This document shows positions 5,799-57,588 of a stretch of DNA of 64,000 bases, one piece after another (position 1 is the stretch's first letter; every line of letters starts with the position of its first letter). A program made the position numbers and the translations under genes. Source of the DNA: Candidatus Aenigmatarchaeota archaeon (GTDB lineage: Archaea; Aenigmatarchaeota; Aenigmatarchaeia; CG10238-14; SCSR01); contig JAVZHQ010000001.1 of NCBI GenBank assembly GCA_038998335.1, forward strand, positions 512,001-576,000, read 5' to 3'. The notes under the pieces were generated by a model, which saw only the letters and a list, made by a program, of their open reading frames with translations, did no database searches and was not told the DNA's origin.

Positions 5799-7616
5799 TT
5801 ATTTCTTCTTTTCTAGCTTTATCGTTAAAAATACCAATATTATAACCAGAAAAATCAAGAAAATTAAAAAGGCAGTTATTGGATTGAAAAATAGAGCTAC
5901 TAACATACCAGTTATCCCTAAAGGCACTTCTTCTGGCTTAACTTCTTCCTCGCATTCTTCAATTTCTATAGGTTTATTAAGAGTCGTGTTACAGTTGTTC
6001 AAGTCAAAACAAAATCTTGTTCTTGTTTTGTTTGTACATTCGCTCCAATCTGTACAGAACCAACTCTCTTCACAAATTACAGGCTTGAAATAAACGCAAG
6101 ACTGAACTTCTTTTGGTTTCGTTTCATTTTTCCCGCAATTGTTTTTATCGTAGCAAACTCTTGTTTGAATTCCTTTTTCATTACAAGCGCTCCACTCAGA
6201 GCAAATCCATTCAGGAACACAAACCTCAATATAATATACAGGAGCTTCAGGTTTTTTTGCTAAAGGTTTTGGTTCGGTAGTCACATTTATTACCGAAGAG
6301 TTTGCTGAATTTCCTGAAGTATCAAAAACAGAAACAAAGTAATGGTAAGTTTTGCTGTATTGCAAGCCAGAATCTACAAAGCTTGTTTGGTTTGAGCTCA
6401 AATTTCCTGAAATATCTTGGAAAACAGAATCCTCTGCTCTAAAAACTATGTAATGGCTTATAGCTACGTTATCGCTAGCGTTTATCCAAGTTAATGTTAT
6501 GGAATTGCCTGAGACCGAGCTATATAATATAGGTGGAATTGGTGCTTCTGTATCTTTTGGTCCATTCAAAGGATCGCACTCGTTATTCCCTTGCATTAAA
6601 GTTTTGTTTAGAGTACAGCCTTGCTCTGAGCAATCCTTTTCACCCCAATAACAATAGCCTTCATGAATCGTGCCTGGCTCAGGGCAAAATTCTTTTTCTG
6701 AATAATTGCAAGTGCAAGAATTTAAATCACATTCATCCTTAAAGTAGCAGTAGTCTCCTTCTATTCTTGCTTCGCACTTATTTTCTTCGTCACATTCTGC
6801 GTCGCAAACTCCTTTAACGCAGTAACTAACAGGCAAAACTAAGCAGTCTGGAGTGCAATTAGTGCAAGTATGGTTTTCTTGACAAGAATTCTCGCAAGAG
6901 TTTTCTGTCGTTATATTATCTAAAATTTTGTTCGAGTTAAAATCTACAAGCTTCCTTCCTTCACAATAGTCAAAGTAAGTTTGCGAGCAATAGTTTGGTT
7001 TGCAATCCTCATCGCTTTTACACTCATAATAAGCACAAAGAACCTCAAGGTAAGGGTCCCAGTTATGGCAGGAAGTATCTTTGCTGTAAAAGTATTGCAC
7101 AGCACTTTTTCCTGTCTCGTTTAAAAATTTTAAAGAAATGCTTAAGATTTTGCTTCCTTCGAAAGCCTCGCTAGCTGCTTTTGTAACGTTAAAGCTTTTG
7201 TAGCCGGTCGAGCTTATGTTTAAAGAATCTAAAAATTCAAAGTCTGTTGGAGCATTATTCCAGTTTATTCCTGACTCATTCCATTGTTGGTTAGAATCTT
7301 TATAGAATTCTGAAGTTTTGTAAGCTCCTACGTACTCTTTTGAAGCTGAAGTGCTGTAAATTTTAAGAGTTGCTTGCTGAATAGCATCGCAAGTTAAAGA
7401 GCTTAGGTTGAATTTTAAGTAAGACCTTTTTGTACCAGACTCTCTTCCTACTATTAGAGAAGTTGAATTTCCGTAATTTTTGCTTGGATTATAAGCGTCA
7501 ACGTAAGAATCATCGCTAGGATAAATTTTTATTAAATTATCGCCATTGGCAAAAACTAAAGTTATTGAAACAAACAACAAAATTCCTAAAAGTATTGCCA
7601 AAAGCCTTGCTTTCAT
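5799..7616 (-). CDS. Surface protein: DNRLRE/CBM96-like domain, Cys-rich region, FN3, WxCxxWxxC repeats, C-terminal TM
   Basis: Signal peptide, DSYVD..NPSKNYG, RSYLKFNL, WNESGINWNNAP, C-terminal ITG motif plus TM plus KKK. Confidence 0.85.
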   Translation of the reverse strand: MKARLLAILLGILLFVSITLVFANGDNLIKIYPSDDSYVDAYNPSKNYGNSTSLIVGRESGTKRSYLKFNLSSLTCDAIQQATLKIYSTSASKEYVGAYKTSEFYKDSNQQWNESGINWNNAPTDFEFLDSLNISSTGYKSFNVTKAASEAFEGSKILSISLKFLNETGKSAVQYFYSKDTSCHNWDPYLEVLCAYYECKSDEDCKPNYCSQTYFDYCEGRKLVDFNSNKILDNITTENSCENSCQENHTCTNCTPDCLVLPVSYCVKGVCDAECDEENKCEARIEGDYCYFKDECDLNSCTCNYSEKEFCPEPGTIHEGYCYWGEKDCSEQGCTLNKTLMQGNNECDPLNGPKDTEAPIPPILYSSVSGNSITLTWINASDNVAISHYIVFRAEDSVFQDISGNLSSNQTSFVDSGLQYSKTYHYFVSVFDTSGNSANSSVINVTTEPKPLAKKPEAPVYYIEVCVPEWICSEWSACNEKGIQTRVCYDKNNCGKNETKPKEVQSCVYFKPVICEESWFCTDWSECTNKTRTRFCFDLNNCNTTLNKPIEIEECEEEVKPEEVPLGITGMLVALFFNPITAFLIFLIFLVIILVFLTIKLEKKK

Positions 7617-55684: not shown

Positions 55685-55744
55685 AGCTTCTTTCGTTTTA
55701 TCACCGTATAATAATATATTGGTTTACCATAATATTATAGATAA

Positions 55745-55826
55745 GCCCCGATAGCATAGTGGTAATGCGCCCGCCTCGTATATTCAAGAAAGCGGGAGAT
55801 CGAGGGTTCGAATCCCTCTCGGGGCT
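55745..55826 (+). tRNA. tRNA-Thr(CGT) with 10-nt intron at 37/38 (55781-55790)
   Basis: gccccga/tcggggc acceptor, cccgc/gcggg anticodon stem, ttcgaat T-loop. Confidence 0.9.
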
Positions 55827-55846
55827 TTGAAAAAAGGAGGAAAAAA

Positions 55847-56137: not shown

Positions 56138-56223
56138 GCGCTGGTAGTCCAGCCTGGTTAAGACGCAGAACTTAGCGGAACCCTGCCACGGCTGAAACGC
56201 GGGTTCAAATCCCGCCCAGCGCA
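56138..56223 (+). tRNA. tRNA-Gly(GCC) with 12-nt intron at 29/30 (56169-56180)
   Basis: gcgctgg/ccagcgc acceptor; cagcc/ggctg stem restored after removing aacttagcggaa. Confidence 0.9.
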
Positions 56224-57470: not shown

Positions 57471-57588
57471 GCAGGGGTTCCCGAGTCTGGTTAAAGGGGC
57501 AGGACTCAAGTCAGACTTGAGTTTTGATTCAAGATGAAAGAAATCCTGTGGCTTAGTGCCTTCCTGGGTTCAAATCCCAGCCCCTGCA
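57471..57588 (+). tRNA. tRNA-Leu(CAA) with 32-nt intron at 37/38 (57511-57542)
   Basis: gcagggg/cccctgc acceptor, cagga/tcctg stem, long variable arm. Confidence 0.92.

Follow-up and report, generated by a model that had tools for sequence, protein, structure and literature searches.

Why archaea and eukaryotes keep introns in their transfer RNA (tRNA) genes is an old open question, and a single intron is accepted as encoding the guide for a modification of its own host: that of euryarchaeal pre-tRNA-Trp, which reviews treat as unique. In Haloferax volcanii and in Pyrococcus (sR50) this intron is a box C/D small RNA (sRNA) which places its own C34 at the fifth nucleotide upstream of a D-type box, the +5 position (PMC7994747, PMC4090602, PMC11408192); Yoshihisa's 2014 review calls it 'a unique example' (PMC4090602), and in their accessible text the 2014 and 2024 reviews name the Trp intron only (PMC4090602, PMC11408192). 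In Nanoarchaeum equitans the elongator tRNA-Met has a 66-nt intron that yields a stable and abundant C/D-like RNA proposed to be a methylation guide, in a report whose accessible part gives the Trp intron as the only case known before (Randau 2012, PMC3491384). Here we describe the intron of a tRNA-Leu(CAA) gene in a stretch of 64,000 nucleotides (nt) from a Candidatus Aenigmatarchaeota archaeon (assembly GCA_038998335.1, contig JAVZHQ010000001.1, positions 512,001 to 576,000; hereafter the window). Judging from sequence comparison, what appears to be new is an intron-borne C/D guide reduced to one kink-loop (K-loop) and spread over many tRNAs.

The resemblance to the Trp intron is close, as both lie at position 37/38 of the tRNA, both have their own C34 at +5 of the guide, and splicing through a bulge-helix-bulge (BHB) motif competes with the guide pairing in the Trp system, as splicing through a putative relaxed BHB would here; the substrate of the Trp guide is the pre-tRNA. 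However, as described, the Trp intron has about 65 nt or more, boxes C/D'/C'/D and two guides (Cm34 and Um39), whereas the introns reported here have 25–47 nt, one box pair and one guide, and the Trp system concerns Trp alone, against up to eight tRNA species here. Stand-alone Pyrococcus sRNAs are described as aimed at nt 34 of the same tRNAs, Leu(CAA) with its C34 among them, but except for sR50 these are separate, full-size and trans-acting, whereas here a half-size candidate guide lies inside its target's own intron. The H. volcanii sR-tMet is another such stand-alone C/D sRNA. The N. equitans Met intron belongs, like ours, to a DPANN archaeon and to a tRNA other than Trp, and it has, according to its published description, one C-like and one D motif; it differs by its length, its GC hairpin and its restriction to one tRNA of one species. 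In a literature search that left most subscription journals and supplements outside its scope, the Trp and N. equitans Met introns were the only ones found to be described as carrying C/D guides, and no account was found of short guide introns with a single K-loop, in Leu or in the other hosts, or of tRNA introns in Aenigmatarchaeota. A first-pass annotation of the window, made from its letters alone, knew of no description of a guide of this kind for tRNA-Leu: we indeed did not find the intron-borne single-K-loop form in print, but C34 of Leu(CAA) is already a predicted target of stand-alone Pyrococcus sRNAs, as far as these sources could be consulted (PMC7994747, PMC7668247).

The source genome (G000 in the locus names below, with C1 the contig carrying the window) is an assembly of ~1.0 Mb with 33% GC in 9 contigs, 90% complete, and the runs listed as containing the stretch are of DNA, none of RNA, and are labelled as hot-springs metagenomes. 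The tRNA-Leu(CAA) gene encodes a class II tRNA and is missed both by ARAGORN run without introns and by Rfam at gathering score, which find two other tRNAs of the window; ARAGORN with the intron option (-i) finds it but mislabels several neighbours, taking Met and Leu(UAA) for Ser and Gln for Leu. Its parts are the following.

57471-57588, + strand: tRNA-Leu(CAA) gene with intron (G000:C1:569471-569588), from ARAGORN -i, the sequence and the RNAfold cloverleaf
57471-57510, + strand: 5' exon
57500-57504, + strand: tRNA nt 27-31, CAGGA, by direct parse
57503-57510, + strand: putative target strand, tRNA nt 30-37 (GGACTCAAG without its first G), with wobble C34 at 57507, from sequence, guide pairing and co-variation
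57505-57510, + strand: anticodon loop C32 U33 C34 A35 A36 G37, by direct parse
57511-57542, + strand: 32-nt intron TCAGACTTGAGTTTTGATTCAAGATGAAAGAA at the canonical position 37/38, from the sequence and ARAGORN -i
57511-57515, + strand: variable 5' intron segment TCAGA, the loop of the cis hairpin
57516-57523, + strand: candidate guide CTTGAGTT, intron nt 6-13, antisense to nt 37-30, from sequence, RNAfold and co-variation
57524-57527, + strand: D'-type box TTGA, NNGA in orthologs
57528-57533, + strand: spacer TTCAAG, 6 nt, the loop of the putative K-loop
57531-57537, + strand: AAGATGA, the C-like box of the first-pass annotation, a register without support
57534-57540, + strand: C'-type box ATGAAAG with RUGA core at 57534-57537, from the invariant ATGA and co-variation with D'; its N5 (57538) and N6 (57539) pair with N2 and N1 of D'
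57538-57543, + strand: intron tail ..AAGAA/A with the splice site before the last A, 3' strand of a putative relaxed BHB
57543, + strand: A38, by direct parse
57544-57548, + strand: tRNA nt 39-43, TCCTG, by direct parse
57543-57588, + strand: 3' exon

Direct reading confirms the antisense relation of intron nt 6-13 to anticodon-arm nt 30-37, which amounts to seven Watson-Crick pairs and one G-U, and the arithmetic of the first-pass annotation is also correct in that G57519, the fifth base upstream of TTGA, pairs with C34. On the arm alone, RNAfold gives a hairpin of 12 base pairs (bp), with nt 27-37 and the first intron base facing intron bases 5 to 16. This hairpin barely exceeds shuffled sequences (z = −1.97), which is weak taken alone, and the case thus rests on the comparison with relatives.

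We have searched 60 relatives by BLAST, with the Leu and Trp genes as queries, followed by a motif parse, and the same intron layout was found in dozens of genomes. The set of parsed introns comprises 94, of 25–47 nt; in orthologs the intron is likewise located at 37/38. Since MAFFT misaligns the C' box of introns with short spacers, two alignments were used: A4, a MAFFT alignment of 31 arms of the long-spacer subset that was not fitted to structure, and A5, an alignment of 58 rows from the source genome and 10 further genomes made with a covariance model. In A4, 87.4% of the cells expected to pair (nt 30-37 with the guide, and N1 and N2 of D' with N6 and N5 of C') are paired, compared to 75.1% in shuffles, of which none in 500 reaches the observed value, and sliding the partner by one column in either direction lowers the pairing to 48–61%. 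The pair at nt 34 is C-G in 22 rows and U-A in 9, that at nt 35 is A-U in 17 and C-G in 14, and that at nt 31 is G-C in 20 and A-U in 9, while N1 of D' and N6 of C' form U-A (20), C-G (6), A-U (3) or U-G (1), with one other combination. A5 evidences the same picture, with C-G in 30 rows and U-A in 25 at nt 34, and with U-A (42), C-G (11) or A-U (2) between N1 and N6, none of these 55 being unpaired. Both alignments and the parse thus agree that in orthologous introns the guide co-varies with the anticodon while the boxes persist, as the first-pass annotation had proposed to examine.

The kink motif of C/D RNAs is composed of sheared G-A/A-G pairs, followed by a U-U or Watson-Crick pair and then by a Watson-Crick pair. 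Among the 94 introns the D' box reads TTGA in 67, CTGA (CUGA, the canonical D') in 16, ATGA in 4, CAGA in 3, CCGA in 2, and TAGA and CGGA in one each; the GA of D' and the UGA of C' are invariant in the hits aligned by the covariance model, and ATGA is present in all full rows. The two boxes occur as the partners CUGA-AUGAAG, UUGA-AUGAAA, CCGA-AUGAGG, AUGA-AUGAAU and UAGA-AUGAUA, so that N1 of D' pairs with N6 of C' in 93 of the 94 introns, whereas N2 and N5 are U-A in 41 and U-U in 40, U-U being the usual C/D pair at that position. The tandem G-A/A-G pairs and flanking pairs of a kink-turn (K-turn) or K-loop are hence present at the sequence level, together with the internal D'/C' arrangement of an archaeal box C/D sRNA (NNGA...RUGA-N5-N6, with co-variation of N1:N6 and N2:N5). 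The spacer between D' and C' measures 2–8 nt, and a stem-loop of 17 nt takes its place in two of the 94. Three relatives (L141:1501-1551, L147:1501-1558 and the Glu arm of L134) have a capped stem instead of the loop, which would make a full K-turn; these stems read GCAGGA-CAA-TCCTGC, GCAAG..CTTGC and GC-TTCG-GC, one of them closed by a UUCG tetraloop.

This comparison also settles the register of the C' box. The AAGATGA which the first-pass annotation took as a C-like box, 3 nt from the D box, is present at 57531-57537, but the register is 3 nt off: the G that it requires before ATGA is found in 74 of the 94 introns and missing in 20, and it has no co-varying partner in D'. We thus place the C' box at ATGAAAG (57534-57540), which results in a spacer of 6 nt. 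A further idea, in which the guide would be sequestered by TTCAAG, a spacer resembling the anticodon loop, in an intron hairpin seen in the minimum free energy structure, was rejected, since Leu(UAA) introns keep TTCAAG without co-variation and an xAAG spacer is common to all hosts.

The distance between guide and box was analysed with a scan independent of the box assignment, in which any 5-nt antisense to nt 32-36 was followed to the next GA...RTGA. Of the 101 cases so found, 94 have the first base of D' exactly 5 nt beyond the guide base that pairs with nt 34. Among the seven exceptions, three were re-read: L133 and L134 fit the rule and had been given wrong parser frames, and L144, a Lys(UUU) gene, has a degenerate D'; the other four are judged wrong parser frames as well, from the frames only. 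In L133 (68-111) and L134, which are Glu(UUC) genes with C33 in place of the near-universal U33, the guide carries a compensating G and nt 34 is again at +5. As read from the sequences, a guide upstream of D' with its target at the fifth nucleotide would therefore be directed to nt 34 in eight anticodons and to nt 39 in tRNA-Cys.

Within the source genome, introns at 37/38 with an identical order of parts are present in Leu(UAA), Trp(CCA), Gln(UUG) and a CAU tRNA which looks like elongator Met, Ile2 being possible. The common layout is composed of a variable 5' segment, 6–8 nt antisense to the host's own nt 30-37, NNGA, a spacer of 3–7 nt, ATGA plus two bases, and an A-rich tail ending in GAA. 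The antisense follows the anticodon (CTTGAG for CAA, CTTAAG for UAA, CTGGAG for CCA, TATGAG for CAU, CAAAG for UUG) and in each of these paralogs the base paired to nt 34 is the fifth upstream of NNGA, while spacer and tail sequences are common to introns of different tRNAs. A covariance model, R1, built from A4 and hence from Leu and Trp arms only, recovers in this genome the introns of Gln (E 2.4e-7), Met (1.7e-5) and Cys (2.2e-4). The module is absent from the 42-nt Tyr intron and from the short introns of 10–12 nt of the same genome, and the latter would be spliced without guide or boxes. The intron of tRNA-Cys(GCA) (L040:91-197, + strand; G000:C1:371540-371646) contains the same K-loop module, with a guide, TTGGTCTT, which pairs with the last 2–3 intron bases and nt 38-42 and places C39 at +5. 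Among the relatives L153-L160, this guide co-varies with the stem in one distant member (L160), where it matches the pre-tRNA junction rather than the spliced one.

The distribution of the module is wide. At E ≤ 1e-5, R1 matches 115 of the 118 genomes in the order; in a sample of the phylum it matches 91 of 151 genomes, 51 of 52 in the order itself and, with a patchy distribution over families, 40 of 99 in the remainder. A Leu(CAA)-specific pattern, CTCAAG-N(1-25)-TTGAG-NNNNGA-N(2-12)-RTGA, occurs in 79 of the 118 genomes of the order, compared to 5 matches for its reversed control; about 8 of the 87 listed places are, by eye, not the tRNA module. In five genomes reached by way of their fibrillarin loci and labelled Micrarchaeota (two), Woesearchaeota (two) and Nanoarchaeota (one), which are too few to speak of spread, R1 gave one match in a Micrarchaeota-labelled genome: a guide and K-loop module in a tRNA-Ser(UGA) (L207:1501-1542, − strand), a host of a four-codon box, with U34 at +5.

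In the source genome and ten further whole genomes the hosts are Leu(CAA), Leu(UAA), Trp(CCA), Met(CAU), Gln(UUG), Lys(UUU), Glu(UUC) and Arg(UCU), a set which covers all seven purine-ending sense split codon boxes of the standard genetic code; Cys(GCA), targeted at nt 39, and the Micrarchaeota-labelled Ser(UGA) lie outside of it. This suggests a role in strict wobble reading in very small genomes. Pyrococcus is described as having four C/D sRNAs, including the Trp intron, that are aimed at nt 34 in Leu(CAA), Leu(UAA), Met and Trp (PMC7994747), and PMC7668247, in the part consulted, gives as predicted targets the C34 of Leu(CAA) in P. furiosus and the U34 of Gln(UUG) in Sulfolobus acidocaldarius. 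The match of hosts and predicted targets with the Pyrococcus nt-34 guides constitutes the strongest functional argument for a guide, by analogy. A search of the source genome, under loose criteria, for stand-alone guides to nt 34 of its intron-less Lys(UUU), Glu(UUC) and Arg(UCU) returned at least hundreds of chance matches. As for the proteins, fibrillarin (1.2e-84), Nop (9.4e-69) and L7Ae (5.4e-32) are all encoded in this genome above Pfam cut-offs, as the first-pass annotation had asked to be confirmed, and the nop5 and fibrillarin genes adjoin.

Taken together, we consider it likely, from sequence comparison, that the intron constitutes a C/D guide with a single K-loop, a natural half-mer, for the 2'-O-methylation of nt 34 (Nm34) of its own tRNA. 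The minimal self-guide with one box pair of the first-pass annotation is thereby retained in its antisense, boxes, +5 rule, co-variation and protein genes, and corrected in the register of the C' box. Three parts would be at work: the 8-nt antisense (57516-57523), the D'-type TTGA and, six bases later, the C'-type AUGA plus two bases. D' and C' are predicted to fold into a K-loop with tandem sheared G-A pairs between two Watson-Crick pairs. In archaea, L7Ae binds the K-loop motif first and Nop5-fibrillarin follows. The same sequence of binding is expected on the intron, and the guide, once paired to nt 30-37, would put C34 in the active site of fibrillarin, resulting in Cm34. Methylation would come first and splicing second, the tail (..AGAA) pairing alternatively with nt 32-35 to form the relaxed BHB that the splicing endonuclease would cut.

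The BHB at 37/38 has been described as a 4-bp helix of nt 32-35 with intron positions N-5 to N-2, flanked by two 3-nt bulges holding the splice sites (PMC4090602). In the present intron G57540 pairs with C32, A57539 pairs with U33 and A57538 stands opposite C34, so that two of the four central pairs are formed, and the 3' bulge (57541-57543) holds the 3' splice site. The tail ends in GAA/A in 74 of the 94 introns, always with C32-G and U33-A and with a co-varying partner for nt 35; an A stands opposite nt 34, mismatched in 63 of 66 C34 hosts and paired in 26 of 28 U34 hosts, 21 of the 28 having all four pairs. Where the intron is shortest (25 nt), the 3' strand of the BHB helix is formed by the C' box. 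Guide form and BHB form would be mutually exclusive, since both use nt 32-35. The guide may act in cis, or in trans as pre-tRNA or as excised intron, linear or, as the first-pass annotation supposed, circular. The 5' segment has 2–16 nt without conserved sequence in the 94 parsed introns, and in the present one TCAGA is self-complementary, so that a guide in trans could gain 2 bp into the intron start, which is the extension noticed by the first-pass annotation. Both extra pairs are available in 28 of 80 introns, against 12.5 ± 3.0 after shuffling, and in 9 of 25 introns with a 5-nt 5' segment, where the second pair cannot form in cis. Along with the pairing of the Cys guide at the 3' junction, these extra pairs point to the unspliced pre-tRNA as substrate; this hints at an action between molecules, although relatedness of the genomes inflates the counts.

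A broader proposal, which we regard as possible but put forward tentatively, is that Aenigmatarchaeota run wobble methylation from tRNA introns, each purine-ending split-box tRNA carrying its own single-K-loop guide. A half-mer ribonucleoprotein, possibly two introns bridged by a Nop5 dimer or else one intron in cis, would methylate nt 34 of the unspliced pre-tRNA, and its release would permit the BHB to form, so that methylation would be checked before splicing.

A number of factors weigh against the intron being a methylation guide. No second box pair and no terminal C (RUGAUGA) or D (CUGA) box was found in the intron or the adjacent exons. Pairing between an intron and the anticodon loop is ordinary in pre-tRNAs, and the guide duplex is short and AU-rich for a hot-spring organism (8 bp, or 10 in trans). 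At 37 °C, with K-loop and proteins ignored, the guide form is calculated at −37.3 kcal/mol, compared to −39.6 for the BHB-like form and −46.6 for the minimum free energy structure; such values do not favour the guide form, nor can they rank the two forms. The intron parse required at least 5 of 6 guide pairs and TGA, most of the loci were retrieved with Leu or Trp as query, R1 leans to arms like those of these two tRNAs, on which it was trained, and the genomes are related rather than independent, so that the shuffle tests overstate significance. In addition, a single-site hemi-complex is reported, in the part of the work available, to be active but non-specific, both C/D and C'/D' being needed, and earlier half constructs not to be viable (Hardin and Batey 2006, PMC1635284). 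In respect to assembly, half-mer RNAs are described in crystal structures with L7Ae, Nop5 and fibrillarin (PMC6239191), and a 36-nt mouse tiny SNORD is reported to keep guide activity (bioRxiv 2026), so that small size alone would not be a bar to guiding.

A distinct scenario, the main rival, would do without methylation: the K-loop may be an L7Ae-binding switch that times splicing or pre-tRNA folding, for instance with L7Ae and the antisense helix keeping the anticodon loop from the tail and thus blocking the BHB until release. The mutual exclusion of the two forms through nt 32-35, or through the C' box in the short introns, would suit such a switch, one K-loop suffices for it so that the specificity problem of half-mers disappears, and in human cells intron-derived K-loop RNAs bound by 15.5K are reported to hold back the excision of the introns that host them, according to the available part of the preprint (bioRxiv 2026). 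We nevertheless hold timing in place of guiding to be rather unlikely, as it leaves unexplained that nt 34 is fixed at +5, that the hosts match the tRNAs with known or predicted guide-dependent Nm34 and that the Cys intron aims its +5 at nt 39; a switch could also hold in addition to guiding. Still less probable is that the elements are a lineage-specific BHB substitute for the endonuclease, or the remains of a mobile intron, with a coincidental resemblance to C/D RNAs. The imperfect central BHB helix, with A facing C34 in nearly all C34 hosts as given above, and the detection of only one endonuclease open reading frame (193 amino acids; L149, G000:C1:649574-649852, − strand) would fit a substitute, and the sharing of spacer and tail sequences between different tRNA introns would fit a spreading element. 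However, the tail alone provides a BHB-type helix that co-varies at nt 35, the 10–12 nt introns manage without any such module, and the adaptation of the guide to the anticodon of each host speaks for selection on its pairing with nt 30-37. Least probable of all, by a small step, is that the antisense helix displays C34 or U34 in a duplex to a protein-only intron-dependent enzyme (Trm4/NSUN2-like), the box pair being a structural hairpin: intron-dependent m5C34 is indeed established, as far as the sources go, in yeast and human tRNA-Leu(CAA), the very host studied here (PMC1635329, PMC11408192), but tandem GA/AG pairs with co-varying flanks and an invariant RUGA are the signature of a K-turn and not of a generic hairpin, and eight anticodons, with U34 and C34 alike, share the design.

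If the intron is a guide, its nearest structural relatives are of two kinds. The K-loop of archaeal C'/D' motifs was reportedly described by Nolivos et al. in 2005; as there, D' is followed here by a short loop and C' without a canonical stem, and L7Ae-type recognition is expected. Known K-loops are, however, the internal half of an sRNA with two motifs, and engineered single-site complexes are reported to have lost specificity (PMC1635284), so that a natural RNA with the K-loop half only would be new. The other kind are the mammalian tiny SNORDs and intronic K-loop RNAs, also derived from introns, of 20–50 nt and with one C/D-type kink; as described in the available part of the preprint, these are eukaryotic, stem from spliceosomal introns and associate with 15.5K/Snu13, most being orphans with little conservation (bioRxiv 2026), whereas the present elements lie in archaeal tRNA introns, are strongly conserved and would be self-targeting. 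What is outlined here is a stripped-down version of the Trp logic, which a genome may repeat in as many as eight of its tRNA species and which recurs across the sample of a DPANN phylum. A natural minimal candidate guide of 25–47 nt with one kink bears on the two-motif specificity rule derived in vitro, and it offers a compact scaffold for the competition between guide binding and splicing on one RNA. Should wobble methylation indeed be run by introns, there would be a selective reason for the retention of tRNA introns, and nature would have solved the specificity problem of engineered single-site C/D complexes.

Other C/D-like elements are found in the source genome. The introns of tRNA-Ser(UGA) and Ser(CGA), of 59 and 53 nt, resemble C/D sRNAs that are complete in their boxes C, D', C' and D.

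L041, G000:C1:281225-281370, − strand: one of the two long Ser introns
L042, G000:C1:504696-504833, − strand: the other long Ser intron

In the Ser(CGA) intron, the D guide matches the T-loop weakly, over 7 bp, which would bring C56 to +5; a search for the Trm56 family in the source genome, 90% complete, found no member. Two candidate full-size C/D RNAs in the ribosomal RNA (rRNA) operon reuse the D'-xAAAG-AUGA module; a target search with the guides of these two and of the two Ser introns returned self-matches and chance-level matches only. Inside the 23S rRNA gene there is a C/D-sRNA-like element, ATGATTA..ATGA..ATGAGTA..ATGA (L165:8610-8725, G000:C1:~415110-415225), flanked by a helix of 11–12 bp, which may be a small rRNA intron; the Rfam 23S match spans 3262 nt, compared to 2987 nt for the model. 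A second C/D-like element is located just upstream of the 5' end of the 23S (L165:~5990-6100).

Other short insertions are found in tRNA genes of the source genome. The tRNA at window positions 55744-55827 (+ strand) has a 10-nt anticodon-loop insertion, TATTCAAGAA, which would be at 55781-55790 if located at 37/38 and would then make the tRNA Thr(CGU); its ARAGORN identities conflict (Ala cgc without introns, Ser cga with -i), and its acceptor stem, AGCCCCG with A1-U72, is the same as that of Gln(UUG). The tRNA-Gly(GCC) at 56138-56223 (+ strand) has a 12-nt intron, AACTTAGCGGAA, at ~56169-56180 in the anticodon stem, between nt 29 and 30, and the Gln(UUG) gene (G000:C1:556995-557113, − strand) has a similar 12-nt stem intron with a common CTTAG core, so that the two look like a small family. 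Stem-located introns and imperfect BHB motifs are usually tied to heteromeric or three-unit endonucleases, and the source genome combines both with the one endonuclease open reading frame detected.

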